Below, piece after piece: positions 19,710-32,229 of a DNA stretch of 64,000 nucleotides. The position numbers and the translations under genes are program-made. Each line of letters starts with the position of its first letter. The stretch's first letter is position 1. This DNA is from Armatimonadia bacterium (GTDB lineage Bacteria > Armatimonadota > Zipacnadia > Zipacnadales > UBA11051), in the NCBI GenBank assembly GCA_039683575.1, contig JBDKRC010000235.1:1-64000 (forward strand). The letters run 5' to 3'. A model generated the notes under the pieces. The model ran no database searches and was not told the DNA's origin. It saw only the letters and a list, made by a program, of their open reading frames with translations.

Positions 19710-20833
19710 TATGAGCCATTTCCTGCGCCGAAGTAGCGATCAAGCAACGCCAAGGCGTCGAATTCGCGACGGCGGTAGATCTGCTTCAGGCCTGCCGTCT
19801 CATCAACAGAGACTGCGCCGTCGGTCAGTTCCTCGAGCTCCTCTACGTACTCGATGAGGCTGTTCTCATCCAGCTTGAAGGCCTGACCGGGACTTCCTTT
19901 TCCGTACAGGCACTGCTGGATGCCCAGTGTGCTCTGGGTCTCGCGAGTACGACTGAAGTGCTGGTCAAGGGCAAACGCAAACACGGGCGCCGGCAGCGAC
20001 GGCTTCGGGCCGATGCCAAAGGCGTACAGGTCTCCGTCAGCAGATGGCTGGATCAGCCGGAGGGATAGCAGGGGACAGTCGAAGCTCTCCTCGGGCAGCG
20101 CTTCTCCGATCTCGGCGCGCGGGGCCGCATAGGTGCGAAGAAAGCAGTCGAAGTCGCGGGACAAGGACGAGCGCGCAACCTTCAGCGCCCCCTTCTCTGC
20201 AACAGAGGCCAGATGGTCTACAGCTTCACGCCGGGTGAAATCGGGACGATGGTAGTGACAGAAGAGCAGCTGCCACGTGGTGCAGACACTTGGGTTTGAG
20301 ACCAGCATCCAGTGGATGAGCCAGAGGGAGGCGTCGTCCTCAAGGAATGGGTCCCAGCCTTCTGGCAACAGCAGAAGGCGCGCCATAGGTGTGGGCTGCA
20401 GTGGCTGCGCTTTGCCTCGCGGCGCACCCGGCACCGGTTCTATGAGCTGCGTCACTGTGCACCAATGTCTTATGCTCTGCACCATATTCTTGCCCACCCC
20501 CAGGTGAACGAGCGCATCCTCATCGGAGAAGATGGTTGCCCGCTGCTCGACGCCCCTTACCCCCTTCTCAAGCCAACCATAGCGGAAAGCAAAGGTCTGG
20601 TGGCCGGAGAAACGATAGGACACCTTGCCCTGCGTGGTCTCATTACTATCGGCAATGATCATCTCGTCAGCTCCGGGACGGGGCTTGCCTGCCGCAGCAG
20701 CTAGGGGGAGGTAGACGGTCGTGCAGAGACCGACGGGGAAGAACGGTGTATCCCCCTCGTAGACCGCAACCTCGGCTGAAGAAGGCGCAATGGCTGTTTC
20801 GACGGCTGTCGAGCCCGGACCTTCCTCTCCCAT
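19709..20833 (-). CDS. sspB: DUF4007 family protein (SspB-like); true start may be ATG 20662
   Basis: FSGHQTFAFRYGWLEKG, LGVGKNMVQSIRHW, WDPFLEDDASLWLIHW, DCPLLSLRLI. Confidence 0.88.
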   Translation of the reverse strand: MGEEGPGSTAVETAIAPSSAEVAVYEGDTPFFPVGLCTTVYLPLAAAAGKPRPGADEMIIADSNETTQGKVSYRFSGHQTFAFRYGWLEKGVRGVEQRATIFSDEDALVHLGVGKNMVQSIRHWCTVTQLIEPVPGAPRGKAQPLQPTPMARLLLLPEGWDPFLEDDASLWLIHWMLVSNPSVCTTWQLLFCHYHRPDFTRREAVDHLASVAEKGALKVARSSLSRDFDCFLRTYAAPRAEIGEALPEESFDCPLLSLRLIQPSADGDLYAFGIGPKPSLPAPVFAFALDQHFSRTRETQSTLGIQQCLYGKGSPGQAFKLDENSLIEYVEELEELTDGAVSVDETAGLKQIYRRREFDALALLDRYFGAGNGS

Positions 20834-21740
20834 GCACTCCAGGTAGCGTCACGCGCCACATACTCGCTCAGCAATCTGGGACAGCTTCCTCCGTCCGCGT
20901 CAGAGCTCGGGAACGCGCGAACTCAGCAGAGTCACAATGGATGGTGTCCGGCTCCTCATACAACTCACGCGCTACGCGTAAGCAGTGAGGCTCACAAGCC
21001 CACGCCGCCGCCGAGCCGGAACACCTCATCGTCCACCGTGGCGGTCTCACGGCACTCGCCAGATCGTGCTATCGGTGTCTCGCCCTCGGCTTGGGTGACT
21101 GGGCCGGCGGGCAGCGCAGGGCCGACCGAGCCGCAAGAGCCCAAGATGGGCACTACCGCCCCGTGACGAGGAATTCTGGCCTGTCTGGGGTCGAGGCCAT
21201 CCCGAGGATCCACGGCCACCCTCGGCTTCCCAAGTTACCCAACCCGAGGATTCTCGGCTTCCCTCGGCTTGGCCCGCACTCCCCCAGGCGCCCCACTAGA
21301 ACGCCTGGCCCAGGCCGCACACATGGGCGGAACGGGGGCCCCGGACCGGCGGCCCAGGGAGCCCGATCCCCGAGAAATCCAAGGTCAACCGATGCTCCTC
21401 CTGGGCCAGCCCGAACACACCCTCCATCAGAATCACCACTCAACGTCCCTACCGGCGTCCGGAACGGGGCCCCAAGGCCTGGTCCCCCGGGGGCCTGATC
21501 CTGCAGGGCATGCCACACACAGCAGCGGCCGGATTCCGTCAAGACATACTTCCGCCGGCCACGCAAGCGGTTGCGTCGGGTCCTCTTTGGCCTCCTATCC
21601 CCCCGGGGGTCTCGGCGGCGGGGGGAGGTGGAGTCCCGATGGGACCCACACCGTCAGAACCTCGAGACGAAGGGGTGAGCCAGCCCCATTCGTCGCAGTG
21701 TGACGACGGCGGAGAGGCCCCGAAGTGCCATCCGACCGAT

Positions 21741-21775
21741 CCCCCTTGGCCGCCGGCGTCGTGAACCCACCCGTG
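21741..21775 (+). repeat. Conserved intergenic motif, copy 1
   Basis: CCCCC TTGGCC GCCGGCGTC GTGAACCCACCCGTG; ATG follows at 21779. Confidence 0.85.
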
Positions 21776-21778
21776 GAT

Positions 21779-22252
21779 ATGACAACCACGCACCCCCCAA
21801 TCACCAAGACCGGATGCACCGCCTGTGGGCACCGCGAAAAGCCATCGGCCATCTCCGACAATATGGCCAGGTTCACGAACAGGGACGGCCGCACGGACCG
21901 CTGCCTGCGCCGGTGCGGCATCGAGGTGCCCTTGGGCACCAAGGTGCTGCTGTGCCGCCAGCATGCTGTCACGCTGGAGCAGGAGCTGACGACGGAGTAC
22001 GGCTCTGCGTGCCCTTATGTCCGCCCGCTGCCGCACAGCGAGGTTGTGGTCGGGTTGGATACCCGACCCAGCATGGCGGAACTGACCACCTGGACCGGTG
22101 ACCCGTTCCTACCGACGGCAACCCTCGGGCCGGAGTACCAGCTCTTCGGCAGACACCGTGCGCGGCGGGTGTCGGTGGAGTTCGAGGGTCGAGAGTTCAG
22201 TGGCGTGTGGCTGCCGGACTGTCAGGACCTCGTCCGGCTCCGGGCGGGGTGA
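21779..22252 (+). CDS. Hypothetical Cys-rich protein
   Basis: CTACG and CLRRCG motifs; ATG directly after motif copy 1 with no RBS (possibly leaderless). Confidence 0.55.
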   Translation: MTTTHPPITKTGCTACGHREKPSAISDNMARFTNRDGRTDRCLRRCGIEVPLGTKVLLCRQHAVTLEQELTTEYGSACPYVRPLPHSEVVVGLDTRPSMAELTTWTGDPFLPTATLGPEYQLFGRHRARRVSVEFEGREFSGVWLPDCQDLVRLRAG

Positions 22253-22260
22253 CACCGATC

Positions 22261-22292
22261 CGCCTTGCCCGACGACACCCGTGAACCCACCC
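22261..22292 (+). repeat. Conserved intergenic motif, copy 2
   Basis: CGCC TTGCCC GACGACACCC GTGAACCCACCC. Confidence 0.85.
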
Positions 22293-22312
22293 ACAGGATG
22301 GAGGTAACGACC

Positions 22313-22624
22313 GTGCATGACGATACCCAGACGCCGACCGTCTTCAGGACATACCCGGATGGTGAGGTGGCGGCCCTCTTCCCGACGATCCCGGCAGACC
22401 CGAATGGCAACTGCTCGTCATACGTCCATGTCGGGCAGCACGGGGCCGCCGACCCGCACCACCTGATCTCCCGCACCCGCCCGGCGACGCCGGACGAGTA
22501 TGCGGAACTCACTGCAGAGTTGGAGGCCATCGGGTACGCCGTCCGGCCCGTCAGGAGGATGACCCACCGAATGGTCGAGGAGCGGCGGGTGACTACCGAG
22601 CCCCCTTGCCCACGCGGGTCGTGA
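22313..22624 (+). CDS. Small phage/plasmid-type hypothetical protein
   Basis: GGAGGT RBS plus GTG 22313; VFRTYPDGEVAALFP...SYVHVGQHGAAD...RPATPDEYAEL..ELEAIGY, a pattern I recognise from mobile-element hypotheticals. Its stop codon falls inside motif copy 3. Confidence 0.65.
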   Translation: MHDDTQTPTVFRTYPDGEVAALFPTIPADPNGNCSSYVHVGQHGAADPHHLISRTRPATPDEYAELTAELEAIGYAVRPVRRMTHRMVEERRVTTEPPCPRGS

Positions 22625-22635
22625 ACCCACCCGTG
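22601..22635 (+). repeat. Conserved intergenic motif, copy 3
   Basis: CCCCC TTGCCC ACGCGGGTC GTGAACCCACCCGTG. Confidence 0.9.
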
Positions 22636-22653
22636 TTCCGGAGGTGATGACGG

Positions 22654-23049
22654 ATGAGCCGGCCACTGCTGGATGACGAGATGAAGGCCAGGCTGCCCGA
22701 GCTGTACTCGCAGGAGGACTTGACAGACCCGATCGTGCAGGTGCTGCTGCTCGGGGCCACCGGATGGGTGTGGGCCATCACCGAGTACTCCGATGTAGCA
22801 CCTGATGGGTGCGAGCATCTTGCGTTCGGGTGGGTGTGCGGCGACTACCCCGAACTGGGCTACGTCCCGATGGACGAGCTCGACGAGTTGAACGCCGACT
22901 GCCTGGAGGGGTTTGGGTACGTCTGGGTCGACACGACCTTCACCCCCCGCCCCCTCTCCCAAGTACGGGCCGAGGCAGAGGACATCCGCCGACGCCTGCG
23001 GGAGGAGTTGGAGGCCGGGGAGCATCAGGTCATCAGGGTTCGGGGCTGA
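22654..23049 (+). CDS. DUF2958-like protein
   Basis: LPELYSQE..DPIV...W.WAITE...AFGWV.GDYPELGYVPMDEL; GGAGGTG RBS. Confidence 0.7.
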   Translation: MSRPLLDDEMKARLPELYSQEDLTDPIVQVLLLGATGWVWAITEYSDVAPDGCEHLAFGWVCGDYPELGYVPMDELDELNADCLEGFGYVWVDTTFTPRPLSQVRAEAEDIRRRLREELEAGEHQVIRVRG

Positions 23050-23102
23050 CGCCGGAGGGTAGGGCCCATCGAGCCGATCAGCCCGAGAACCGAACGGAGG
23101 TG

Positions 23103-23564
23103 ATGAAGATGCTGAGCGCCGCCACTTTCGGGTCGTTGCTGGAGAGGGGCGATGTCCTCGTGAAGGACGGCGATGCCTACCGTCCCCTGGCCGCCAATGA
23201 CGCACATCGCCGGATGTACGTGCGCCTGTCGGATGGCACCCACGTGATGCTGGCGTTCACCGGCGGCGGCACCGACGGGCCCGGCGCCGCCCCGCAGCGG
23301 GTGAGGATCGACATCGGTGGCTCCGTGGCCGACGCCGTCAGGGACGCTAACGTGGCTGCGGCGCCGTACACGAGCGTGGTCGGCTCCTGTCTGAAGGCCT
23401 ACGTGCTGTTCCTGGTCGGGGTGGCGGTCGTGGGCATGGCGGCGGTGGCGCTGTTCGGTGACTACGGCCAGCCGGGGCTGCTCGCGAGGTACCCCTTCCA
23501 GTCAGCCGTGATTGCCGCCATCGTGATCTGGATCGTCATCGCCCGGAGGCGGCGACGTCGGTGA
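23103..23564 (+). CDS. Small membrane protein
   Basis: GGAGGTG RBS; two C-terminal hydrophobic helices ending in RRRRRR. Confidence 0.55.
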   Translation: MKMLSAATFGSLLERGDVLVKDGDAYRPLAANDAHRRMYVRLSDGTHVMLAFTGGGTDGPGAAPQRVRIDIGGSVADAVRDANVAAAPYTSVVGSCLKAYVLFLVGVAVVGMAAVALFGDYGQPGLLARYPFQSAVIAAIVIWIVIARRRRRR

Positions 23565-23580
23565 CGGTCCCCCGCGGTCC

Positions 23581-23611
23581 CACTTTGCCGGACGGGGGAC
23601 GTGAACCCACC
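23581..23611 (+). repeat. Conserved intergenic motif, copy 4
   Basis: CACT TTGCCG GACGGGGGAC GTGAACCCACC. Confidence 0.75.
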
Positions 23612-23642
23612 GGCTCAACACCACGCCGGAAGGCGTCGAACG

Positions 23643-23954
23643 ATGACCACCTACTGCGACGCAGAGGGCTGCGAGAACGAGGCCACCGAGGTCGTCCCGG
23701 TCTCCGTCGGCGAGAATGCCGTCGAACATCGCCGCTACTGCTACCCCTGCTCCGCGGCGTGCCACACGGGGGCACAGCACGCGCGCTTCCGGGCGATCCG
23801 GCGACTGACGGCCCATATGGATTCGCTCAAGAAGCAAGGGTTCGTCACCGAGGCGGGCGTCATCTTCATGGCGCTCCAGAAGCTCGATACTGCGACCGAC
23901 CCCGGCGAGGAGGGGGTGGGGCCGCCGCCCCTCGATGGTCCGGGAGATCAGTAG
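23643..23954 (+). CDS. Hypothetical zinc-finger-like protein
   Basis: MTTYCDAEGCENEA...YCYPC; flanked by motif copies 4 and 5. Confidence 0.55.
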   Translation: MTTYCDAEGCENEATEVVPVSVGENAVEHRRYCYPCSAACHTGAQHARFRAIRRLTAHMDSLKKQGFVTEAGVIFMALQKLDTATDPGEEGVGPPPLDGPGDQ

Positions 23955-23958
23955 CCGA

Positions 23959-23994
23959 CCCCCCTTGCCCACGGGTGGGGTGAGCCCACCCGTG
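23959..23994 (+). repeat. Conserved intergenic motif, copy 5 (perfect hairpin)
   Basis: CCCC TTGCC CACGGGTGGG GTGAG CCCACCCGTG: perfect 10-bp stem with a 5-nt loop. Confidence 0.9.
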
Positions 23995-24011
23995 AGCAGG
24001 AGGTGATCAGG

Positions 24012-24971
24012 ATGCACGAGCGTGTGACACTGACGGACCGTGACAGCCGTGCCCGGCTCATGCGGCAACACGTCGAGGCCGTGGCCCGCTCGATCGTCGA
24101 GGACCACGATGGCGACGAGGTGTTCGCCCGCTACCTCAGCCTGACGAAGCACGTCCACCACTACAGCAGCGGCAATCGGATGTTGATTGCCTGGCAGGCA
24201 CCGGACAGCCGCTTGGTCGCATCGAGGTCGGCGTTCGACGCCGTCGCCAAGGGGCAGGGGCACGAGGGCCGTCAGTTCTCGAGTCGCAGGGGCAGACGCT
24301 GGACGCAGCACGTCACCATCGCCGCCGGGTCGAGGGCCATCTGGGTGTGGGGACCGACGAGGCGGAGCCGCTCCGTCGTGACCACCGACACCGAGACGGG
24401 CGAGGAGACACGGGAGGTCATCCCATTCACCGGCTTCATCCCCGTCGATCTTTGGGCCATCGAGGATGTCCGCTATGCCGACGATGGCGAGCCAATGGAG
24501 CCGCCGGACTTCGTACAACCCATAGAGGACGAGGCGCTGTACCACTCGCTGCTCGCGTTTGCCGAGGACAAGGACATCGAAGTGTGCGAACGGGGCCTCA
24601 ACGGGGCCCGTGGCGTCTCGATGGTGGGCCGGATCGGCCTGCAGGCGGGCGACCATTGGTCCCTGCGAATCGGGCCGCTGATCCACGAATTGGGCCACGA
24701 GTTGATGCACGACGTCCACGCGCGGCTGACCGAGCCGAACTACCTGCACGAGCACGAGGCGGAGGCGGTGGCGACGGTGGTGCTGGGCTACCTCGGACAC
24801 CCCACGGCGATCTCTGCCAGTTACCTTAGGAACTGGGGTGCGTCCCCCAGGAACGTTGTCGCCTCGATGGATCGGATCGCCTCCTGTGCGGGAGAGATCG
24901 TGGAGTTCATCGAGCGACGGACCGAGGTGTCGGTCGAGGTCGCACGGGCGACCTCACTGGCGGTGGCCTGA
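24012..24971 (+). CDS. ArdC-like protein (ssDNA-binding N-domain plus zincin metallopeptidase-like domain)
   Basis: HHYSSGNRMLIAWQAP..RLVAS; HELGHELMH...EAEAVATVV...SASYLRNW; AGGAGGTG RBS. Confidence 0.75.
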   Translation: MHERVTLTDRDSRARLMRQHVEAVARSIVEDHDGDEVFARYLSLTKHVHHYSSGNRMLIAWQAPDSRLVASRSAFDAVAKGQGHEGRQFSSRRGRRWTQHVTIAAGSRAIWVWGPTRRSRSVVTTDTETGEETREVIPFTGFIPVDLWAIEDVRYADDGEPMEPPDFVQPIEDEALYHSLLAFAEDKDIEVCERGLNGARGVSMVGRIGLQAGDHWSLRIGPLIHELGHELMHDVHARLTEPNYLHEHEAEAVATVVLGYLGHPTAISASYLRNWGASPRNVVASMDRIASCAGEIVEFIERRTEVSVEVARATSLAVA

Positions 24972-24989
24972 GCGGTGGCGAGGTGGGCG

Positions 24990-25337
24990 CTACTCCCTCC
25001 CACCCGCCGCCTGCAGCATCCGCCGCAGTTCGGCTGCGATCGCCTGACGCACGTCATCGTCGGGCAGCAGGCCTCCACTGTACAGTGCCGCCGGCGGCAG
25101 CAATCCGACGGCCACGTACACTGGCAGACCGTGAGCCGTATCCCACAGTGGCCAGATCATCTCGCCCTCGACGAAGCTCGTGACTGGTTGGCCCCACAGC
25201 TTACGTGCCGCCCGTGCTACCAGTCCCTCATCCAGCCCCAGCCGCACCTGTATCCAGTGGTCCGTGGGGTTCGCCCCCCGCTCCGCCCGGACCTCATCGG
25301 GTGTCGCCGGTCTCAGTTCGATACCTCGCTCACTCAT
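24990..25337 (-). CDS. Hypothetical protein (inverted relative to the array)
   Basis: GAGGAGG RBS 7 nt before ATG; converges on the ArdC-like gene. Confidence 0.55.
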   Translation of the reverse strand: MSERGIELRPATPDEVRAERGANPTDHWIQVRLGLDEGLVARAARKLWGQPVTSFVEGEMIWPLWDTAHGLPVYVAVGLLPPAALYSGGLLPDDDVRQAIAAELRRMLQAAGGRE

Positions 25338-25412
25338 GTCATGGCCTCCTCTGGTCAGTCGTATGCACCCTTATACCGATTGCCCCACCCATCGACCTAC
25401 AACCGACCGAGT

Positions 25413-25446
25413 CCCCTTGTCCACGGGCGGCGTGAGCCCACCCCTG
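25413..25446 (+). repeat. Conserved intergenic motif, copy 6
   Basis: CCCC TTGTCC ACGGGCGGC GTGAGCCCACCCCTG. Confidence 0.85.
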
Positions 25447-25473
25447 GGCATCACCCTGACGGGGAGGACGGAC

Positions 25474-25734
25474 ATGAGACGCATCCTGATCGTCTGGCAC
25501 GATCTCGACCACAGCCGCACCGCACATGAGTTCGCCACCGCCGAGGAGGCCGAGGCCTGGCTCAGGGACGTGCTGCAGGAGTACTGCCCGCACGAGGAGC
25601 TGGAACGGGGCGGCTACACGCCCGACGGGATCGGTATGTTGGGGCTGTATCAGGGGGAGGGTCTCGACGACGTCGGCTCGCTCGATGTCTACATCGACGG
25701 CATCGGCGTCGGACCGGAGGCCCTCCGTGAGTGA
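25474..25734 (+). CDS. Hypothetical protein
   Basis: GGAGG RBS, MRRILIVWHD...; first of three overlapping ORFs. Confidence 0.55.
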   Translation: MRRILIVWHDLDHSRTAHEFATAEEAEAWLRDVLQEYCPHEELERGGYTPDGIGMLGLYQGEGLDDVGSLDVYIDGIGVGPEALRE

Positions 25735-26188
25735 GCATCGACGGCTCCTGTTGGGCCCTTGGCCGCCCGAGAACTGGCGGCGGGACGATCGCATCCCGCT
25801 CATGTCCCTCCGCAAGGATCTGCTGTACTGCTTGTTGTCGCGGTGTGGCGAGGTCCTGCCTTGGGAACTGCCGGCGATGACGCCGACAGAGGTGCTGTGC
25901 CGGCTGAACGCGGCGGGACCTCCGCTCGACGACCGGGCCATCCCCGTGATCGAGGGGGTCCTCGAGGCAATGTACCGCGACGGGATCGTGGGACGCATCC
26001 CGCCACCAAGGGTCGGCGAGGCCGCATCCTACGTGGCCCGTGACGCCGCTGAGATGGACCTGCCACGGGGCAAACCGGTGATGCTCCTGCACATGAGGGA
26101 TGGCGTGGAGCGGTCACTGGCTCTGGGGGCCGTCGGCGTCGCGGTGGACGAACTGGCCGATGAACCGACGGCACCACACGGAAGGTGA
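25727..26188 (+). CDS. Hypothetical protein
   Basis: GTG overlaps the upstream stop; GGAGG upstream. Confidence 0.5.
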   Translation: MSEHRRLLLGPWPPENWRRDDRIPLMSLRKDLLYCLLSRCGEVLPWELPAMTPTEVLCRLNAAGPPLDDRAIPVIEGVLEAMYRDGIVGRIPPPRVGEAASYVARDAAEMDLPRGKPVMLLHMRDGVERSLALGAVGVAVDELADEPTAPHGR

Positions 26189-26481
26189 GCGGGATGCCCA
26201 CGGTCATAGGGCACACGCCGGACGGACGGGAGATCATCCGCCACGACCCCTCTGAGGGCTGCCGCTACCGCTGCCTGACCTGCGGCAACTGGCTGGCGCG
26301 GCGCCGCGAGGTCAGGGGGCACTGGGCCCTGTACTCGGACGGGCACAGCGTGTACGCGGACCGCGCGGGACGGACGTACCATCAGACGGTGGAGGGGCTG
26401 CATCGGAGGGACTGGCCGACTGGCAGTGCCGACCAGGCCGACGGGACGGAGGCCGATGCTCCCGGTGCCACCGGCGGATAG
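26185..26481 (+). CDS. Hypothetical protein (CLTCG zinc-ribbon-like)
   Basis: GTGA overlap with the previous stop; ends just before motif copy 7. Confidence 0.5.
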   Translation: MSGMPTVIGHTPDGREIIRHDPSEGCRYRCLTCGNWLARRREVRGHWALYSDGHSVYADRAGRTYHQTVEGLHRRDWPTGSADQADGTEADAPGATGG

Positions 26482-26502
26482 GGGTGGGCTGGTAAGGACC
26501 GG

Positions 26503-26538
26503 CCCCCCTTGCCCACGAACGGCGTGAGCCCACCCGTG
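26503..26538 (+). repeat. Conserved intergenic motif, copy 7
   Basis: CCCCCC TTGCCC ACGAACGGC GTGAGCCCACCCGTG. Confidence 0.9.
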
Positions 26539-26563
26539 GTCATCACACCCGAGGAGGCGGGGC

Positions 26564-27046
26564 ATGTCCAGATCGTTCAAGCAGAGGTTCCGTAGGGACG
26601 TATCCGACCTGCTGGCGTCCATCTCGGTGGACCCGGAGCCGCGCCGCACCCTCGTCAGCTGGCCGCTGTTCGACGCCCTCGTCGAGATCGAGGCGGAGGT
26701 CAACAGCCCCCGCACGAACTGGCACCTGGTGGCGGCCCTGACTGGGGCGAAGAGCTACATCGTGACCGTCCCGTATGGCCGCTCCTGCGATGACCCCTTC
26801 TGGGCGGAGGAGCGGGCGGACGATGAACCCTCCATCTACGGGATTCTCGATGGCCTGCACTTCCGTGCGGCTATGCGGGTGGGCGTTCTGGCCTCCGGCC
26901 TCTCGGTGTTCGGCGGCACCGCCGACGGCGTGGAGATCCGGCACGGGGAGGTCGACACGCAGGCGTCACCCGGCAGCCCGACCCTGCGGCTGATCGCGGC
27001 GGAGCGTGCCCGGATCGAGGCGGACCCCGCGGACGACGGGGGATGA
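26564..27046 (+). CDS. Hypothetical protein
   Basis: GAGGAGG RBS after motif copy 7. Confidence 0.6.
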   Translation: MSRSFKQRFRRDVSDLLASISVDPEPRRTLVSWPLFDALVEIEAEVNSPRTNWHLVAALTGAKSYIVTVPYGRSCDDPFWAEERADDEPSIYGILDGLHFRAAMRVGVLASGLSVFGGTADGVEIRHGEVDTQASPGSPTLRLIAAERARIEADPADDGG

Positions 27047-27094
27047 ACCGGACCAGATGGACGGTGGGCGTAGCACGAACGACAGGAGACATCT

Positions 27095-27712
27095 ATGAGC
27101 GACCACGATGATGTGTATGAACCCGACGCCGACCCGAAGAACCTGTTCGAACGCCACAGGGCCTCCGGCGAACCGCTGAGCCAGGCCGATGTTGCCGCGA
27201 TCATTGCGGCGGGTCTCGCCGGGAAAGACGAGTTCGACATGACGGGCGGTGGATGCTACCTACACGCCCCGACGTTCCCGGACCCCGACGCCGACACCGG
27301 ATCACGGGACCTGCCCCGGCCGCGGGATATGGCCACGGCCGCGGCGTTCCGCGACTGGCTGAGCGGCGAGGTGGACTGGTGGTGCGGGGAAAACGGCCTC
27401 GCCCCCCACGGCGGGGGGGAGAACCTCGGCGACCTGTACCGCGAGTTCGACGTGGCGGATGTGTTCTCAAGGATCGGCGTGACGGCGATTCCCGCCTACG
27501 ACGAGCAGACGCTCTACCTCGTGGGACCGGACGCGGCCTGGATCGCCGCCACGGGGATCGAACTCGGGGGCGAATCGGAGACGCTGTGGCAGGACCCGCT
27601 GGGCAGCCTGCGACTGGACGTACCCGTGAACGAACTCCACACCTACCGCGACCGCCTGCTGCGGCTCGCCGGCGAGATCACCGCCGTCCTGGATCGGGGG
27701 GAGGGACTATGA
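27095..27712 (+). CDS. Acidic hypothetical protein
   Basis: AGGAG RBS; Asp/Glu-rich 205-aa ORF. Confidence 0.6.
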   Translation: MSDHDDVYEPDADPKNLFERHRASGEPLSQADVAAIIAAGLAGKDEFDMTGGGCYLHAPTFPDPDADTGSRDLPRPRDMATAAAFRDWLSGEVDWWCGENGLAPHGGGENLGDLYREFDVADVFSRIGVTAIPAYDEQTLYLVGPDAAWIAATGIELGGESETLWQDPLGSLRLDVPVNELHTYRDRLLRLAGEITAVLDRGEGL

Positions 27713-27912
27713 CCGGTACCGTCCTCGACCTGAACGACTTCGGGTCATTCTGGCTGCTGACAATCGCTGCCGAGCGTCGGATCGTGGAGCAGCCCATCGA
27801 GCCCCGTCATATGCGGCACCTGGTCGAGGGGGAGGGGCTGGAATCACCGTACGACCTTGAGGGACGGGAGGTCCAGGTGAGCGACGACGGCATGGCGATC
27901 CGGCTGATGTGA
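27709..27912 (+). CDS. Small hypothetical protein
   Basis: ATGA overlap, GGAGG RBS, MTGTVLDLNDFGSFWLL... Confidence 0.55.
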   Translation: MTGTVLDLNDFGSFWLLTIAAERRIVEQPIEPRHMRHLVEGEGLESPYDLEGREVQVSDDGMAIRLM

Positions 27913-27926
27913 GATGGGAGGCACAG

Positions 27927-28436
27927 GTGACCACACAGATTACCCAGGAGGAAATGATGCGGACAGCGTCACACCGGCTGGCCCTCGCCATCGGGTTCGA
28001 CCGCCCATTGAGCATCGAGGACGTGGAGGAGATCTGCGACCAGGGCATCGCCGATAGCGGAGACTTTCTCCCCGACCCCGAGGACCCGACGGCACATACC
28101 TACTGCGGCGACCGCTGGGCGGTCGAGTACAGCACCGGGCGGCCACGGCTGGTGGAGGCCATCGAGGTCGGCCCCCACCCCATCGGGCCTGCCACTGCGA
28201 GGGCCGAGCGGGCGTTCGCCCTGATCATCGACATGGTCGATTGCGTCGGCCCGCCGATGACCCAGGACTGCGTAGACCGGATCCGCAGGGAGAGCTGGGG
28301 GGATAGGTTCGGAAGGGCCGCCCAGAGCGATGCCACGGACCAGTTGTTGGACCTGATCTATCGTGACGGGGATGCCCCCGATTCCGAGCGGACCGTTCCC
28401 ACCGAGGAGGTGGATCAGAATGAGGAAGAGCGATGA
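27927..28436 (+). CDS. Acidic hypothetical protein
   Basis: GGAGG RBS plus GTG 27927; same operon as the ClpX-like gene. Confidence 0.5.
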   Translation: MTTQITQEEMMRTASHRLALAIGFDRPLSIEDVEEICDQGIADSGDFLPDPEDPTAHTYCGDRWAVEYSTGRPRLVEAIEVGPHPIGPATARAERAFALIIDMVDCVGPPMTQDCVDRIRRESWGDRFGRAAQSDATDQLLDLIYRDGDAPDSERTVPTEEVDQNEEER

Positions 28437-29667
28437 GCCGCAGGTGGCGGTAGACGCCTCGGAGGAGCGGAAGCGGAGGGCGGAGGAGCGGCTCGTCGCC
28501 GCCTCCAAGATCCGCTGGACACCGAGGGAGCTATCCGAACGTATGGCCGCACAGGTGGTGGGCCAGCAGGACGCCCTCCGCACGATCTCGGTGGCCGCCA
28601 TACAGCACGTGGCCGCACGGGTGCGGAGGATCGCCAGTACGATGCCCCCCGTGCAGCCCACGCGGATTGATCCCATCCTTTGCATCGGGGGCCCCGGAAC
28701 AGGGAAGATGCTGACATGTAAGGTGTTGGGGCTGCAGTTGGGAATCCCGTACCACATCGCCGACGCGGGCCGCATCACCGCCGAGGGGTGGCAGGGCCTC
28801 GGACTGTCGGAGGTGCTTCACCCCCTGCTGACGCAGGCGGCCGGGTACATGGACTACGCCCGCTGCGGGGCGGTCTGCCTCGATGAGATCGACAAACTCA
28901 GGAGGGCAGACATGACCTCACATGGCGGCCGTGATATCTCGGGGGGCGATGCCCAGAACGTCCTCCTGAAGCTGCTCAACGGAGACGTGGTGCAGTTCGA
29001 GGTGTTCGGCGGCCCCAACGGGACCGGCCGGACCATGATCACGTTCCCGACGGATCACCTGCTCGTGATGGCGGCGGGGGCGTTCGAGGGGCTGGAATCC
29101 GTGGTGCTGGATCGCCTCCGGGGTCGCCGGCGGATGGGCTTCGGCGGCGACGATCGCAGGCCGGACGAACTCTCACCGTCGGAGTTGCGGCGGATGGTGA
29201 CCCGCGAGGACCTGCAGACCTACGGTCTCAGGCGGGAGATCTGCTCGAGGTTCGGCCGCATCGTCGTCTTCGACGACCTCGATCGGCGAGCCCTGCGGAG
29301 GATTCTGCTGGAGACGCCGGAGGGGCCATTCTCCACCGTACAGGCACTGGCCAGGTCGCAGGGCTTCCGATTCGATGACTTCCCTCCCGCCCTGATCGAG
29401 GCCATCCTCGACCGCTGCGGCGGTGATGCACGGCGGCTCGCGGGACTCGTGTCACAGGCGACGGAGGCGGCGTTCTACTGCGTACCCGACAGGATCAGGG
29501 CGATGGGCCGCCGGGCGACCGACGGTGAGGTGGTGGTGGGCCTACGGTCGGATAGCCTCGACAACGGCTATCATACGGTCAGGGTCGAACAGCCGGTGGG
29601 CGTGGACGATGACGAGGACGTCGCCCTTCCGCAGCCCCGCCGGGCCCGAACCGCGAGGGGCGGGTGA
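28420..29667 (+). CDS. Divergent ClpX-like AAA+ ATPase without the N-terminal zinc finger
   Basis: VVGQQDA, GGPGTGKM, DAGRITAEGWQG, CLDEIDKL, GRDISGGDAQNVLLKLL, AGAFEGL, RMGF, DLQTYGL align in order with ClpX motifs. Confidence 0.85.
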   Translation: MRKSDEPQVAVDASEERKRRAEERLVAASKIRWTPRELSERMAAQVVGQQDALRTISVAAIQHVAARVRRIASTMPPVQPTRIDPILCIGGPGTGKMLTCKVLGLQLGIPYHIADAGRITAEGWQGLGLSEVLHPLLTQAAGYMDYARCGAVCLDEIDKLRRADMTSHGGRDISGGDAQNVLLKLLNGDVVQFEVFGGPNGTGRTMITFPTDHLLVMAAGAFEGLESVVLDRLRGRRRMGFGGDDRRPDELSPSELRRMVTREDLQTYGLRREICSRFGRIVVFDDLDRRALRRILLETPEGPFSTVQALARSQGFRFDDFPPALIEAILDRCGGDARRLAGLVSQATEAAFYCVPDRIRAMGRRATDGEVVVGLRSDSLDNGYHTVRVEQPVGVDDDEDVALPQPRRARTARGG

Positions 29668-29922
29668 TCCGTCCCGTCCGCGTTGGGACGTGGTCGGGTG
29701 TCGCTGATTCGGAGCTGGCCAGCAGGGCATCGCAGGTCCCGCTGAGGTAGCGTTACAGAGATGATCCGGGCACCCCGCGCCGACGTGGGTACGGACTGGG
29801 GAGGCCGTTGCATACGACGTCCAATCCCACATGAGACTTTCGCCTTGGGCCCGGGCATCGTATGATAGACCGCGGCAATGGACCCAAAGCCGATTGCCAG
29901 CAACTGGAGGAGGTACCCGCAG

Positions 29923-30717
29923 ATGCCGAACCGACCATCCGAGGGCGAGCCATCGACAGCACGAGCCGTTCCCGTGCAGGGCCTGGAGGCTTGCCCCGAC
30001 CGGAGACGTGCCGTCGCATACCACGAGGCGGGGCATGCGGTGATGGACTGCCTGAGAGGGCGCAGCTTCAGGTGGGTGAGCATCGTCCGCACGGACGCCT
30101 ACGCCGGACAGGTTCAGGGGTACGACCTCCCCAAGTGGTTCGAGCCTGACATGGCCTCCGGCCCGGAGTATGACGAGGTGATCGAGACCCTCGTGCTGGG
30201 TCTGCTGGCGGGCGGTGTCGTCGAGGAGGAATACATAGGGATACGGCCCGAGCCATGGTCAGTGCAGAGCGACCTGGAGAAGGCGGTGACGCTCGCCGAG
30301 TGCCTCAGTGGCAGCATCGAGGACACCGAGAACTATTTGGACGAGATGAGGGAACGGGCACGAACGCTCCTACGGGAACACTGGACCGCGGTTGAGACCC
30401 TGGCGACCGCACTCCTGCAGCGCCCGAAGATGAACGGCAGTGCGGCATGCCAGATCATCGAGGCGGCACTGCCAGCGGCGGCGAAGGAGGAGGCCGCACG
30501 ACGCCGTAGGGTATGGGGACGGATCGCTCAGCGAATGGGCAAGGACAGGGCGATCGAGGAGCGTTCCCAAAGGGCGCGGAGGCACTCTGCCTTGGAGAAC
30601 GAACTCCTGAAGGTGCTGAATGAGCACCTCCGCGACCACCCCATGGAGCGGGACGACGTGCTGGCCGTGCTGTGGCATATGGGAGGGCGCGTGCGGGAGG
30701 CGTACAGGTCGGCCTGA
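29923..30717 (+). CDS. Stand-alone peptidase M41 (FtsH protease domain)-like protein
   Basis: RRRAVAYHEAGHAV, LLAGGVVEE, SDLEKA, ARTLLREHW.AVE.LA.ALL. Start uncertain (29878 or 29923). Confidence 0.8.
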   Translation: MPNRPSEGEPSTARAVPVQGLEACPDRRRAVAYHEAGHAVMDCLRGRSFRWVSIVRTDAYAGQVQGYDLPKWFEPDMASGPEYDEVIETLVLGLLAGGVVEEEYIGIRPEPWSVQSDLEKAVTLAECLSGSIEDTENYLDEMRERARTLLREHWTAVETLATALLQRPKMNGSAACQIIEAALPAAAKEEAARRRRVWGRIAQRMGKDRAIEERSQRARRHSALENELLKVLNEHLRDHPMERDDVLAVLWHMGGRVREAYRSA

Positions 30718-30879
30718 CGGGCGCCTGGCGTCATAGGGTTCCGCTCGTTCACGGCGTCTCATCTCATAATCTCATCGGCGAGGCGGATGAAATGCAGGGC
30801 CGTTATCCGTCCCACGTGGTCGGACCGCGGCCTTTCCACGGGCCCATGGCCGTACGGTGGTGGGGGTGGTGAGGCAGCC

Positions 30880-31149
30880 TCACACCGAGGCCACGTCACC
30901 ATCGAGGCGCCATCCCCTCAGACCGACAGTGAGGCCCCCGTCGTCGGGATTCCCACTGTCGTAGGCGTCGAGGAACAACGTTCCGAGCGGACCATCGGTG
31001 TCGCCGAAGCGCACCGACGCCGCCTCCCCATCCGCCAGGGCCTCCACGGCCCTCACGTCGTCGGGTTCCGGTGCCAAGTTCGGGAACAACTCCAGCAGAC
31101 CGCCGCGGCGGGCCGCGGCAAGCACCTGCTGCAGGGCATTGTCTACCAT
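30880..31149 (-). CDS. Hypothetical protein
   Basis: GGAG RBS, MVDNALQQVL... Confidence 0.45.
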   Translation of the reverse strand: MVDNALQQVLAAARRGGLLELFPNLAPEPDDVRAVEALADGEAASVRFGDTDGPLGTLFLDAYDSGNPDDGGLTVGLRGWRLDGDVASV

Positions 31150-31489
31150 CGGTCGTCTCCAGTGCTCGTATCCGCGGTGGGCACGGCGGGCGGTCGTCAC
31201 CCCGGTGTGGCCGAGGGGCTGATCAGGGCGCGCCGCATACCTTTCCTGTTCGCCGCGACGTCACGTTGTCCTCCGTCCGTCCAACCCGGCCGGGCATCCG
31301 ATGAGGAGCACCCAACTCTCCCGCGATGCCGGACGATCGGCTGGACGTGATGGGCCATTCATTAAGTCGAATCGATTATGGGCACGAATCTTCGCTCTAG
31401 GCGGTTGTTCAACTGCGGTGGGGACTGGGATCATCGCCACACCAGGCGGGGCCTGGAGCGCAGCCACGCTCTTGTGACGGCACATCTGA

Positions 31490-31542
31490 GCGGGGGCTCG
31501 GGGGCTGGCAGTTGAGGGCTACCCGCCAGTCCTCCGCCCCGC
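31490..31542. terminator. GC-rich imperfect hairpin, possible terminator of the leftward operon
   Basis: GCGGGG..GGGGCTGGC / GCCAGTCCT..CCCCGC, about 55 nt after the 31596 stop; no clear U-tract. Confidence 0.3.
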
Positions 31543-31595
31543 CCGTTCGCGACGATCTGGTTCCCGTCCGGCGCGCCATCAGCGGTATTCGACAC

Positions 31596-31802
31596 TCAGT
31601 TCAGCGGCCAACCTGCCATCTTCACGTCTGAACACCCGGTCGCAAGGTGACGCCCTCCTCGTCCCAGAAAGGACCTCTCCGCATCGTGGATGTCCAGGTT
31701 CACCAACGTGCTGCCATCGTCCGACACCCTGGCAGACACCCCATCCAGTTGCACCGTATCCCCGTCCTTCAGTATGAATTCGTCCCCTTCCCTGTATGCC
31801 AT
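31596..31802 (-). CDS. Small hypothetical protein
   Basis: GGAGGAG RBS, MAYREGDEFILKDGD... Confidence 0.55.
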   Translation of the reverse strand: MAYREGDEFILKDGDTVQLDGVSARVSDDGSTLVNLDIHDAERSFLGRGGRHLATGCSDVKMAGWPLN

Positions 31803-31900
31803 GTTGAACACTCCTCCAGTTGGTCCCTGTGCCTGCAGTGGCCCCGCCGCCACCCGCGATGTCCAGGCCCGTTCGGCGGTGCTCCGCCCGGCTGGGGCCA

Positions 31901-32176
31901 TCATTCGTTCGCGGTCGGGGACTCGCGCGGGGTGCCGAGTTGAACCAGATAGCCATCCTTGGGTTCGAGGACGAACTCGGCGTACTCGGCGCCGCAGCCG
32001 TCGCACCGGACGTACAGCGTCTCCTCATCCTCATGGAACACCTCCCGCATAGACCAGTCCTGAGTCGTCTCGCTGGTGTTGCTGACCGCAAACTCCACCA
32101 TGTTGCGGCATACCGCGATCAGGTCCTGCTCGCCGCAGGCGGGGCACGTATCGATGGGCTTGCTCACGTCATTCAC
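31901..32176 (-). CDS. Small zinc-ribbon protein
   Basis: CPACG...CDGCG; GGGAGA upstream of GTG. Confidence 0.55.
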   Translation of the reverse strand: MNDVSKPIDTCPACGEQDLIAVCRNMVEFAVSNTSETTQDWSMREVFHEDEETLYVRCDGCGAEYAEFVLEPKDGYLVQLGTPRESPTANE

Positions 32177-32229
32177 TCTCCCTCGCAGGTATGTGCACAG
32201 GCGGGATGACCGGTCGGCTCCCTTGAGAT

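Follow-up and report, generated by a model that had tools for sequence, protein, structure and literature searches.

A repeated motif with promoter-like geometry heads the gene units of an orphan-rich island in an Armatimonadia bacterium

The window, a 64,000-nucleotide stretch of an Armatimonadia contig, carries eight copies of an element-specific motif, each of which precedes a gene on its own strand, the minus-strand integrase included. Its anatomy is bipartite, and its geometry is common to four of the six versions compared here and nearly so to a fifth. From sequence comparison, the copies are best read as promoter cassettes that are specific to the element and may bear a stem-loop; they would be analogous to the PeSL cassettes of T4-type phages but with a non-canonical −10 box (CACCCG), a reading to which we assign roughly an even chance.

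Motif copies and the genes they precede

Seven exact matches to the core GTGARCCCACC were found in the window, all on the plus strand within 21761–26534 (starting at 21761, 22281, 22621, 23601, 23980, 25432, and 26524), with one extra match, bearing a single mismatch, at 41804–41814 on the minus strand; the chance level at up to one mismatch, taken from shuffles, is 3.9 ± 2.0. The 6.23-Mb genome contains 12 exact core matches, seven of them within the window, and a reversed-pattern control gave 4. An nhmmer profile was built from 14 copies (eight from the window, four from relative L009, and two from L011); as the window copies helped to build it, their own matches are expected, and the one informative result is that no others were found. 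Searched against the 6.2-Mb genome, it gave eight matches at E ≤ 7e-6, seven on the plus strand (21735–26545) and one on the minus strand (41840–41797), with the next-best match at E = 2.9. As all eight profile matches lie on the contig of the window, the motif is element-specific, and the genome-wide REP-like repeat that the preliminary description had named as a refutation is excluded. The seven plus-strand copies reported there are all present in their places; the eighth, before the tyrosine integrase on the minus strand, had been missed.

The 15-mer GTGARCCCACCCGTG is exact in copies 1, 3, 5, and 7 only, with one mismatch in copy 6 and three each in copies 2 and 4, a tolerance at which matches are not above chance (11 found, 7.0 expected). 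Copy 2 has a spacer longer by 1 nt and a 3′ box ending in CCCACA, and copy 4 is the most degenerate, with TTTGCC and CCCACCGGCT. Copy 5 contains a perfect 10-bp inverted repeat (CACGGGTGGG/CCCACCCGTG; 11 of 12 positions pair), whereas in the remaining window copies 2 to 9 of the 12 arm positions pair. As the preliminary description had stated, this copy alone is perfect, four copies lie within about 25 nt of the previous stop codon (copies 2, 4, 5, and 7, at 8, 16, 4, and 21 nt), and one, copy 3, contains the stop (the TGA of g2). Upstream of copy 6 is a divergent minus-strand gene, and upstream of copy 1 are ∼900 nt without a convincing ORF. The motif heads units and not every gene: the junctions g3/g4, g8/g9/g10, and g11/g12 lack it, the genes of unit 6 overlapping or lying 5 nt apart with no internal motif, and no further copies occur in unit 7 and the region downstream. 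Copy 8 is co-oriented with the integrase ORF (40763–41896) and sits inside its nominal 5′ end; translation of the integrase therefore probably begins downstream of the copy.

Table 1. Motif copies and genes of the island (positions in the window; E values from nhmmer).
Feature	Position	Strand	Remarks
Motif copy 1	21735–21782	+	E = 3.9e-10; TTG at 21746, conserved A at 21769
g1	21779–22252	+	157 aa, Cys-rich orphan, first array gene
Motif copy 2	22254–22301	+	E = 7.3e-6
g2	22313–22624	+	103 aa, orphan; homologs in L013, L016
Motif copy 3	22595–22641	+	E = 6.3e-10
Unit 3	22654–23564	+	g3 22654–23049, g4 23109–23564
Motif copy 4	23575–23616	+	E = 4.6e-6
g5	23643–23954	+	103 aa, Cys-rich orphan; homologs in L009, L017
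Motif copy 5	23955–24001	+	E = 1.7e-11
g6	24012–24971	+	319 aa, distant ArdC-like / ImmA-IrrE-like metallopeptidase
g7m	24990–25337	-	115 aa, orphan
Motif copy 6	25406–25453	+	E = 4.4e-10
Unit 6	25474–26481	+	g8 25474–25734, g9 25727–26188, g10 26194–26481
Motif copy 7	26498–26545	+	E = 4.5e-10
Unit 7 and downstream	26564–31350	+	g11, g12, g13, ClpX-like AAA ATPase, mini M41 peptidase, g16
ClpX-like AAA ATPase	28363–29667	+	
Mini M41 peptidase	29878–30717	+	preceded by its own TATGAT
Motif copy 8	41797–41840	-	E = 7.9e-7

None of the ten proteins encoded in 21779–26481, among them the orphans put forward earlier as candidate anti-defence proteins, matches Pfam or PHROG (E ≤ 0.01 in each), and these searches found no DNA-binding domain in any array protein. 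The ORF enclosing g1 has a GC3 of 0.83. Homologs of g1 and g3 are found in relatives (L014, and L012 and L013, respectively), and the synteny of g7m with the ArdC-like gene is kept in L011 and L014. The g6 protein has an HExxH motif and belongs to a family of 46 clusters; its earlier description as ArdC-like holds for a distant relationship only, as it shares 25–28% identity across ∼94% of its length with plasmid proteins that are annotated as ArdC-like or ImmA/IrrE, and has no Pfam match. The DUF2958 likeness claimed for g3 falls short of the threshold (E = 0.11; 13.3 bits, with the cut-off at 21). The tyrosine integrase is generic Xer-like and convergent with the array at a distance of ∼14 kb; its eight NCBIfam matches all score far under the curated cut-offs and include no integron-integrase-specific model. 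In relatives, one of 63 motif-preceded proteins is an integrase. Separately, the archaeal XerA model among the NCBIfam matches bears a product name that includes "integron integrase." The PHROG search matched only a DnaC-like loader, and a search of a phage collection gave no match. Searches for a relaxase, T4SS, Frpo-type long hairpin, and conjugation genes found none, which lends no support to the link to anti-defence leading regions suggested previously.

Geometry of the motif in relatives

Metagenomic relatives, fetched via the ArdC-like gene, carry their own versions of the motif before nearly every gene, at densities of 14 in 5.8 kb (L012), 23 in 8.8 kb (L013), and 15 in 6.0 kb (L026), with 101 of 106 pattern matches on the gene strand. 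The common geometry consists of a C-rich 5′ box of 12–14 nt ending in TTG or TTC, a spacer of fixed length (16–17 nt) and variable sequence, an A 23–24 nt after the first T of TTG/TTC, at the place that A(−11) would take in a promoter, and a purine 10 nt past this A. The A is at +23 or +24 in all W-type (13/13) and E-type (15/15) copies, and the invariant column A34 of type A corresponds to +24; the purine is present in 10 of 13 W, 34 of 37 A, and 15 of 15 E copies. Type D comes close, with its A at +22; type C, whose A lies at +20, does not fit; and type B, with several candidate A's, is ambiguous. In an alignment of 34 type-A copies, gapped in one row only, the bipartite signature comprises the invariant columns C1, G2, A3, C5, T6, C8, C9, T10, and C12, and A34, C36, and C38, while the 17 columns between the two boxes vary. 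The stop codon of the previous ORF ends 2–5 nt before the box in 24 of 37 type-A copies. A low-GC relative has the version TTGTRA-N16-TACTGT, i.e. TTG plus TANNNT, and of the TANNNT rule only the A is kept in the −10-like hexamers of the GC-rich versions (CACCCG, CAYCCC, CATCCG, and CACGGC). In copy 1 position A+10 falls on the first base of the ATG at 21779, which predicts a leaderless arrangement, and the g1-like gene of L014 (TTGTCA-N16-CATCCG-N5-ATG) is in the same register.

Stem-loops are enriched but facultative, and their placement shifts between versions. Hairpins occur in 44 of 91 copies; uninterrupted stems of at least 7 bp are found in 6 of 13 W and 22 of 37 A copies (shuffled fractions 0.18 and 0.26, respectively), the longest being 18 bp. 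The stem arms lie at +3..+15/+19..+32 in W and A, at +2..+13/+24..+35 in B, and at −13..−2/+4..+15 in E. Folded as RNA, copy 5 has z = −3.8 against shuffles and the other window copies −0.8 to +2.0. No T-run follows the stem-loops of the GC-rich versions, which makes any terminator role there putative.

Promoter cassettes and alternative readings

The motif would, on the promoter-cassette reading, be a repeated regulatory cassette heading each transcription unit of an integrated mobile element. The C-rich box ending in TTG would act as a −35-like element and, across the spacer of 16–17 nt with its fixed length and free sequence, the downstream box with the invariant A (CACCCG in the window) as a −10-like element. 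The purine ∼10 nt past the A would be the transcription start (predicted at 21779, 23998, 25450, and 26542, with CA at 23997–23998 in copy 5), followed by a 14–24-nt leader with a Shine-Dalgarno (SD) sequence or, in copy 1, by no leader. In about half of the copies the spacer is complementary to one box, so that transcripts or DNA from the upstream unit could form a stem-loop, which may serve as an attenuator/insulator or as an operator. The −10-like hexamer is non-canonical, yet canonical-looking −10s are seen by eye elsewhere in the island (TATAAG before g7m and TATGAT before the M41 gene), from which we infer an element- or lineage-specific factor, perhaps a sigma, an activator, or an anti-repressor. 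The shared promoter/operator proposed in the preliminary description, with TTGCCC as −35, an atypical −10, and a leaderless copy 1, is the best fit to the comparative evidence; anatomy, element specificity, and common geometry are observed, and promoter activity, start site, factor, and stem-loop role are what we infer from them.

Several observations weigh against this reading. The 5′ box exceeds the length of a −35 hexamer, type C departs from the geometry and type B is ambiguous, as described above, and the canonical-looking −10s suggest that ordinary promoters are used by the host polymerase. A consensus scan of 20800–31500 found no sigma-70-like sites, and the L026 motif likewise fails its 9-of-12 rule. 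Contigs of one RNA library cross copy 1 (21621–21791) and another has its first base at 25431, 19 nt short of the predicted copy 6 start; such contigs do not reveal RNA ends and DNA may be present in the library, but they give the promoter model no help.

The long 5′ box would also suit binding sites for an element-encoded DNA-binding regulator, an unlikely alternative in which the copies are not themselves promoters, one or a few real promoters (e.g. upstream of 21741) drive the array, and the bound protein silences or insulates each unit. Such sites would resemble repeated operators or the one-orientation "stoperator" sites of cluster A mycobacteriophages. The W-type consensus holds a 12-bp inverted repeat (CCCACGGGTGGG-N5-CCCACCCGTGGG) that pairs at 9 or more of 12 positions in 7 of 12 copies, compared with ∼4.6 in slid controls, and A·C mismatches in the arms outnumber G·T (13 and 2), showing no sign of selection for a sense-strand RNA helix. 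The motif differs between element lineages, as expected from co-evolution with a cognate protein, and the ArdC-like protein resembles, by annotation of distant relatives, the ImmA/IrrE peptidases, a class acting on repressors. However, only some copies are palindromic (copy 8 pairs at 2/12 and copy 3 at 6/12 positions), the invariant positions form two promoter-spaced boxes and not two symmetric half-sites, the array proteins have no detected DNA-binding domain, and an operator alone leaves the A+10 purine and the in-register leaderless ATG unexplained. Operator function is compatible with the promoter-cassette reading if the site is both promoter and operator. It is improbable that the motif works in RNA, where a C-rich anti-SD-like box and a hairpin in a polycistronic transcript would mask the ribosome-binding site, or fold into a stem-loop for processing, stabilisation, or termination, with translational coupling or cistron-specific control as the outcome. 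Pairing between the C-rich box (CCTCC) and a GGAGG further downstream is feasible in types A and E, the consensus structure adds this CCTCC:GGAGG helix, and the type-A helix runs from the 5′ box to the SD edge with up to 18 uninterrupted pairs; a ribosome terminating at the stop codon just before the type-A box could open it. Minimum-energy folds pair the C-box with the SD region in 5 of 7 window copies, and a T-rich tail follows the L026 hairpin, with 13 terminator-like sites against 5.4 ± 2.6 in shuffles. Against this, the helix is paired in 70.1% of cells of the 34 type-A copies compared with 68.8% when shuffled (29 of 500 shuffles reach the observed value), its inner part is just 62.5% paired, the central anti-SD pair is broken in 14 of 34 copies, copy 5 alone among the window copies folds better than shuffles, and an Rfam search gave no match. 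The hairpin also shifts relative to the conserved boxes between versions, and an invariant length combined with free spacer sequence is not typical of stems and loops in RNA.

Whole units distinguish the relatives from one another at the motif, as would be expected if the copies were site-specific recombination sites (attC-like or lox/dif-like) at which the island's tyrosine recombinase captured, excised, and reordered gene cassettes as in an integron, a possibility that we consider very remote. An X2 relative has 1091 letters in place of the intergenic 23551–23642 around copy 4, one X4 contig (depth 2) joins 23944 to 25413 and so lacks the ArdC-like/g7m unit that spans copies 5 to 6, and gene order differs in L013 and L017; the changes in content and order of homologous units considered in the preliminary description are thus seen. 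The repeats share one orientation, start at the stop codon before them, and bracket single ORFs or small units; in the W-type consensus, inverted arms flank a 5-nt centre that is asymmetric, and the recombinase gene itself carries a copy. However, several joints rest on short sides (21–45 nt) at 85% likeness, and the joints are equally expected from homologous recombination between repeats; the differences between relatives fit recombination between repeated cassettes. The integron-like site proposed earlier is further disfavoured by the recombinase, which is not adjacent and divergent to the array, by the lack of a second arm in most copies, by a hairpin that moves while the two boxes stay fixed, and by the motif itself, which is 35–48 nt long and lies upstream of starts with promoter geometry. 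Moreover, the repeat centre varies between type-A copies, so that strand exchange between them would be blocked, as differing centres violate an established requirement of the reaction.

Comparison with known systems

PeSL (promoter-early stem-loop) cassettes of T4-type phages (Arbiol et al. 2010, PMC2839356; Comeau et al. 2014, PMC4122927) run from a stop codon through −35/−10, with a stem-loop that lies between these boxes or overlaps them, to SD and start (PMC2839356). PeSL, as outlined in these accounts, and the window motif are both repeated intergenic cassettes directly upstream of ORFans that begin at the upstream stop codon, have −35/−10-spaced boxes with a stem-loop of variable position between or over them, and end with SD and start; both are concentrated in a hyperplastic, orphan-rich region where relatives differ by indels or replacements at the cassettes. 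In contrast to PeSL, the window element is not in a phage, judging by its single PHROG match and the lack of any match in the phage collection, its boxes are not sigma-70 consensus, the sequence upstream of the −35 is C-rich rather than AT-rich, and each element lineage has its own version. The likeness is here one of sequence, and promoter, terminator, or mini-circle activities of the window motif would be putative.

The SAS/ESAS (start-associated sequences) of cluster K mycobacteriophages (Pope et al. 2011, PMC3203893; PMC12699233), whose function was described as still unverified in 2025 (PMC12699233), are, according to these sources, likewise conserved one-orientation repeats placed shortly before the start codons of some non-structural genes, about half with an imperfect inverted repeat and variable spacer, and with a consensus differing between sub-lineages. 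SAS is, however, a 13-nt block that includes the ribosome-binding site and lies 3–8 nt from the start, whereas the conserved boxes of the window motif are 14–50 nt upstream with a separate SD; host and element type differ, and the SAS consensus matches once in the window at up to two mismatches, below chance. Frpo-type single-stranded promoters of plasmid leading regions (bioRxiv 10.1101/2022.09.06.506729) similarly place same-strand early genes, anti-restriction types included, after repeated hairpin-capable sequences. As described there, a long stem-loop of single-stranded DNA rebuilds canonical −35 and −10 boxes, with two copies on F, whereas the window motif has no canonical boxes, its stems reach at most 18 bp, half of its copies lack a stem of at least 7 bp, and the window yielded no conjugation genes. 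Integron attC arrays, too, consist of mostly single, unrelated, same-strand ORFs parted by a repeated imperfect-palindrome element, but the window has no IntI-type integrase beside the array and no attC core sites, and its element lies upstream of genes with promoter geometry.

The cassettes, whose 45-nt homologies recur on either side of whole genes, may also provide break-and-join points for the gain, loss, and reordering of units. If the promoter-cassette reading is true, a specific factor would switch all of the orphan genes and the integrase together.

Distribution of the motif and genes of the array

All seven plus-strand copies of the motif described in the preliminary description are present in the window where it placed them. 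The 11-nt core GTGARCCCACC matches exactly seven times on this strand, and the only match with one mismatch lies on the minus strand, in an eighth copy that the preliminary description did not include and that has the same orientation as the tyrosine integrase ORF. In copies 2, 4, and 6 the full-length consensus is degenerate. The exact core occurs 12 times in the whole assembly (6.23 Mb, 352 contigs), seven of these in the array, as compared with four matches of the reversed-pattern control. An nhmmer profile, trained on 14 copies of which eight came from the window, so that the window matches are obtained by construction, gave eight matches at E <= 7e-6, all on the contig of the window (seven on the plus and one on the minus strand), with the next-best match in the genome at E = 2.9. 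As no other sequence in the genome matches the profile, the motif is specific to the element, and the core counts and the profile search together rule out a genome-wide REP-like repeat, the case that the preliminary description had set against its own proposals; the motif is confined to this contig.

The window copies begin 4-21 nt past the previous stop codon, or include that stop, and finish 3-27 nt ahead of a start codon, each leading into open frames with high third-position GC. The units formed in this way are g1, g2, g3-g4, g5, g6 (with the opposite-strand orphan g7m), g8-g9-g10, and g11 onwards; within units the genes overlap or are closely spaced and the motif is absent between them.

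The ten array proteins gave no match in Pfam or PHROGs at E <= 0.01 and none in NCBIfam, and ESM Atlas look-ups for g7m and g1 returned low-scoring leads only. The DUF2958-like assignment of the preliminary description corresponds to a sub-threshold match of g3 (E = 0.11). Its ArdC-like assignment is borne out for g6 as a distant likeness, found by tblastn and not by Pfam, NCBIfam, or PHROG models: g6 shares 25-28% identity over ~94% of the protein with plasmid proteins annotated as ArdC-like or ImmA/IrrE, and the HExxH columns are invariant in a 23-sequence alignment of its family. By these alignments g6 would be a distant ArdC-like/ImmA-IrrE-like metallopeptidase. The family comprises 46 clusters, the majority known from short contigs alone; one of the closest relatives (P0002, 86% identity) lies on a 359-kb contig.

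The orphan g7m is found next to the ArdC-like gene in two further loci (L011 and L014) and has, on the minus strand upstream, a canonical-looking TATAAG and a GGAGG of its own. As a candidate regulator or partner of the ImmA/IrrE-like peptidase it would be expressed constitutively; Pfam and ESM Atlas gave neither a fold nor a family for it. The small M41 peptidase gene, inspected by eye, has a TATGAT 11 nt ahead of its ATG and lacks a Shine-Dalgarno sequence, which reads as an ordinary, near-leaderless promoter, in contrast to the motif-headed units of the same island. The Dcm-type C5 methylase and Vsr endonuclease adjoin the integrase and, with an N6/N4 methylase, add to the defence and modification load of the island. 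Upstream of copy 1, in a stretch of ~900 nt without a convincing ORF, lies the short, conserved, hairpin-capable sequence GGTGGAGTCCCGATGGGACCCAC; similar sequences occur upstream of the array in L014 and L019, and in sequencing run X2 ~1.7 kb of extra DNA is found inside it. Possible roles of this sequence are those of an att site, an oriT, or a regulatory site.

A phage origin of the element was considered and rejected. A tblastn search of 50,697 phage records gave no match, IMG/VR contained no match to the W-type motif of the window and ten contigs with one unrelated match each to the type-A 5' box, and, of ten further island proteins searched against PHROGs, the DnaC-like loader alone was matched. 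Neither phage structural genes nor conjugation genes were found in 2.5-50 kb of the window.

Coordinates of features in the window and in related loci
Feature	Position	Strand	Remark
Exact core matches (seven)	within 21761-26534	+	
Core match with one mismatch	41804-41814	-	
Eighth motif copy	41840-41797	-	
Start codon behind copy 1	21779	+	
Ssp-type phosphorothioation module			left of array
GGTGGAGTCCCGATGGGACCCAC	21625-21650		upstream of copy 1
SAS consensus match	21589-21601	-	
g3/g4 spacer	23040-23112		motif-less
Region upstream of g7m	25338-25412	-	
Region with TATGAT and ATG of M41 gene	29855-29880		
Small M41 peptidase gene	29878-30717		right of array
ClpX-like ATPase, DnaC/IstB-like ATPase			right of array
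Dcm-type C5 methylase and Vsr endonuclease	38757-40341		right of array
Xer-like tyrosine integrase	40763-41896	-	right of array
N6/N4 methylase	42028-43227		
Colinear with X2 contig	21084-32886		~90% alike
Extra DNA in X2 (~1.7 kb)	21638		
Place of 1091 extra letters in X2	23551-23642		copy-4 intergenic stretch
Missing in X2	27745-28209		
Join in X4	23944 to 25413		
RNA contigs of X13 over copy 1	21621-21791		
ArdC-like gene in L017	1831-2743		two pieces, different frames
ArdC-like gene in L023	846-1728		two pieces, different frames
GGTGGAGTCCCGATGGGACCCAC-like sequence in L014	1-25		upstream of array
GGTGGAGTCCCGATGGGACCCAC-like sequence in L019	~590-625		upstream of array

Motif versions in relatives and the geometry of their boxes

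A metagenome scan through the ArdC-like gene returned twenty loci, for 18 of which the upstream region was read. A related motif was recognized by eye upstream of the ArdC-like gene in 15 of the 16 loci with at least 60 nt there, a count that includes variant forms in L014 and L022; the motif of L020 is doubtful, L010 has 41 nt only upstream, and L018 has none. In the longer loci the motif stands ahead of most genes. When the ArdC-like gene is used to orient the loci, 101 of the 106 matches to the motif patterns lie on the plus strand, and the minus-strand matches other than the integrase copy of the window look like chance. In type A, 24 of the 37 copies start 2-5 nt past the stop of the preceding ORF. 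The ArdC-like genes of L017 and L023 are frameshifted, each aligning in two parts that lie in different frames, and reflect either assembly errors or decaying copies. The motif-less spacer between g3 and g4 in the window holds GGGCCCATCGAGCC, which resembles the type-A 3' box GGCCCATCCC of other elements and may have been left behind by a cassette of another version.

Versions of the motif and their two boxes
Version	Loci	5' box	3' box
W	window, L009, L011	CCGACCCCCCTTGCCC	GTGAACCCACCCGTG
A	L012, L013, L019, L023	CGACCTSCCTTCGG	CAYCCC, then directly GGAGGTGA
B	L014, L021, L028	CCCCAGCCCCCTTGTG	ACCACCATC
C	L015, L016	CTCCTCCCATCG	GTCACCG
D	L017	CCCGGCAnCCCTTTG	CACGGC
E	L026 (low GC)	CTCCTTGTRA	TTACTGTAGAGTG

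Two contig scans of species-representative genomes found no close relatives, and in 401 genomes of the phylum, searched by profile, the ArdC-like genes recovered were distant ones only (E ~1e-20), nine of whose loci contain no such arrays. Loci around distant ArdC-like genes in other genomes of the phylum (L041, L042, and L043) carry two copies of a perfect 16-18-nt palindrome, TGTTCGGACGTCCGAACA, ~2156 nt apart, which looks like an operator and is unrelated to the cassette motif.

The alignment of 34 type-A copies contains a gap in one row only and has two blocks of invariant columns (C1 G2 A3 C5 T6 C8 C9 T10 C12 and A34 C36 C38), with seventeen variable columns between them. When all versions are anchored on the first T of TTG/TTC, a conserved A is located at +23 or +24 in W and E, at +24 in type A (A34), and at +22 in D, with type C off this geometry (A at +20) and type B ambiguous in register, having several A's. 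A purine is found 10 nt past the conserved A in 10/13 copies of type W, 34/37 of type A, and 15/15 of type E, and in W and E the base before it is usually a pyrimidine (CA in 9/13 W and TG in 15/15 E copies). This layout has the geometry of a putative -35 box followed, after a spacer of 16-17 nt, by a -10 box that contains the key A, and then by a start site. All six versions have a C-rich upstream flank.

The low-GC version has the boxes TTGTRA-N16-TACTGT, of which the second has the form TANNNT. Of the sigma-70 pattern, a TTGACA-like -35 and a TANNNT -10 set 16-18 nt apart, the window boxes, TTGCCC-N16-CACCCG, retain the spacing, the TTG, and the A alone, and in the GC-rich versions the A is the only part of the -10 TANNNT present; a consensus scan of 20800-31500 found no sigma-70-like site. 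For copy 1 the start is predicted to fall on the A of the ATG, and a g1-like gene in L014, whose frame shifts just downstream, has TTGTCA-N16-CATCCG-N5-ATG in the same register. Of the earlier proposal of a promoter with TTGCCC as -35, an atypical -10, and a leaderless copy 1, the geometry fits and the hexamer remains non-canonical. Contigs of the RNA library X13, which do not favour the promoter reading, span copy 1, and one starts 19 nt upstream of the predicted start of copy 6, with the limits that these are contigs only, which cannot show RNA ends or strand, and that the library may contain DNA.

The best-supported reading of these patterns is that the motif would be a promoter cassette with a facultative stem-loop, heading each unit. 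Since canonical-looking -10s occur elsewhere in the island, preceding g7m and the M41 gene by eye, and the cassette -10 is non-canonical, the cassette promoters would need a dedicated specificity factor or activator, which would switch the array and the integrase jointly. Two other readings of the boxes were dropped on inspection by eye: sigma-54, as TTGC is not preceded by a GG at a distance of 10 nt, and the ECF type, as GAAC and CGT are wrongly spaced.

Stem-loops, possible cassette exchange, and alternative explanations

The W-type consensus contains a 12-bp inverted repeat. In the 12 copies compared, 12, 11, 11, 10, 10, 9, 9, 8, 7, 7, 6, and 2 of the 12 positions pair (2-11 in the window copies), as compared with ~4.6 in slid controls. 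Uninterrupted stems of at least 7 bp, the longest found being 18 bp, occur in 44 of 91 distinct copies, counted across all versions, with enrichment over shuffled sequences in W (6/13 versus 0.18) and A (22/37 versus 0.26) and less so in the others. The position of the arms shifts: types W and A have them between -35 and -10, type B has them further downstream, and in type E they surround the -35 box; in W, A, and B they cover the spacer and the -10-like box. Pairing of the type-A helix (70.1%) is close to that of column shuffles (68.8%), with 29 of 500 shuffles reaching it, and the inner helix (62.5% paired) is not above shuffles. Because the boxes are fixed, the stems optional and shifting, and the pairing no better than in shuffles, the stem-loop is a frequent, movable accessory and not a conserved core.

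These data bear on the explanations that place the function of the motif in its fold. An RNA switch in which a hairpin sequesters the Shine-Dalgarno sequence is not supported as a universal function by the pair counts or by the folds of the window copies: the pair of anti-SD and SD is broken in 14 of 34 type-A copies, and copy 5 alone folds better than shuffles. No known RNA family of the Rfam type reached the gathering score in the whole window, and at E <= 1 two chance-level matches only were found in 20800-27200. A bound regulator would be accommodated at least as well as a bare promoter by the long C-rich 5' box and the palindrome. An Frpo-type single-stranded DNA promoter, in which a stem-loop rebuilds canonical -35 and -10 boxes, does not fit the cassettes, about half of which lack a stem of at least 7 bp.

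Nor do the cassettes fit attC sites. In an attC array each cassette ends, on its 3' side, in a structured imperfect palindrome that is conserved in structure rather than in sequence, whereas the copies here conserve sequence boxes and have an optional palindrome: the second arm is absent in most copies, the repeat centre varies between type-A copies, and the fixed feature is the two boxes. An integron has an IntI-type integrase adjoining the array, divergent, with attI and Pc. The sole tyrosine recombinase in the 2.5-50 kb scan is ~14 kb from the array and convergent, and its NCBIfam matches are of Xer type, all far below cut-off (best 88 bits versus 335); no integron-integrase-specific model is among the eight, and the archaeal XerA model has 'integron integrase' in its product name. 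With a generic Xer-like recombinase, an optional palindrome, and fixed boxes, the integron-like recombination site of the preliminary description is not supported. As to its proposed check, whether units change order in relatives with breakpoints at the motif, the order differs between loci: g2, g3 ... g5, ArdC-like in the window, ArdC-like ... g2 ... g3 in L013, and ArdC-like, g11, g10, g12, g5 in L017, with ArdC-like, g7m, motif, g8 retained in L011. Joints that may lie at the motif occur in two sequencing runs; several other joints rest on short sides. The X2 contig (56 kb) has 1091 extra letters in the exact place of the copy-4 intergenic stretch, and in X4 one contig, of depth 2, skips the ArdC-like/g7m unit between copies 5 and 6. 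These joints fit exchange at cassettes, homologous or site-specific alike. Short-sided joints in X13 (20-21 nt) were disregarded; no run covers half of the stretch, all but the 56-kb contig being short contigs, and uncovered stretches carry no information.

Relation to phage repeats and significance

The promoter-early stem-loops (PeSLs) of T4-type phages comprise a stop codon, -35 and -10 boxes, a stem-loop between or over the boxes, an SD, and a start (PMC2839356); most of them stand ahead of ORFans, and recombination between them gives rise to indels (PMC2839356; PMC4122927). The cassettes of the window and its relatives likewise stand directly before ORFans, from the upstream stop to the SD or start, with a stem-loop, where present, at variable positions relative to the boxes. 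They differ from the PeSLs so described in lacking sigma-70-consensus boxes (the window -10-like box is CACCCG), in a C-rich rather than AT-rich upstream flank, and in their location in an integrated island with its own version in each lineage rather than in phages. PeSLs would be the closest analogue in mechanism, but the sigma-70 consensus, the AT-rich flank, and the phage context set the cassettes outside that class. The SAS/ESAS elements of cluster K mycobacteriophages, whose function is described as unverified (PMC12699233), share the one-orientation placement near starts and an inverted repeat in about half, but differ in position and sequence, being a GGGATAGGAGCCC-type block of 13 nt that lies no more than a few nt from the start codon; the SAS consensus at up to two mismatches matches once in the window, with 2.6 matches expected by chance. 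A literature search limited to PeSLs and start-associated sequences returned phage-related and unrelated work only and none on chromosomal islands.

A broader proposal, tentative and on balance unlikely, is that in a family of integrative elements of uncultured bacteria, with an Armatimonadota host in this case and a low-GC host in one or more others, the accessory orphan genes and the integrase are under a private promoter code. This code would combine an extended, C-rich -35 box with a CAYCC-type -10 and be read by an element-encoded or lineage-specific factor. The version would have diverged in each lineage, and the cassettes would insulate genes and act as shuffling junctions, making this a non-phage counterpart of the PeSLs that has a transcription specificity of its own.

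If the cassettes are not promoters, the family would still be a clean test bed for one-orientation, start-linked repeats such as SAS/ESAS and stoperators. If they are, the motif would be a ready marker, in the mobile elements of little-studied phyla, for accessory genes that are regulated together and turn over fast, and an ORF behind it would be an expressed cargo gene. At least 60 of the 63 motif-preceded proteins in relatives and all ten in the window array are without a Pfam match (at most three matches, possibly two: DUF6876 in one protein, and two integrase families with one member each, probably the same protein), and the cargo behind an ArdC-like neighbour would be a sensible place to seek counter-defence functions. 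The retention of a non-canonical -10 across diverged versions points to a specificity factor, and the modular shuffling mediated by promoters and stem-loops, known from T4-type phages, would extend to chromosomal islands.
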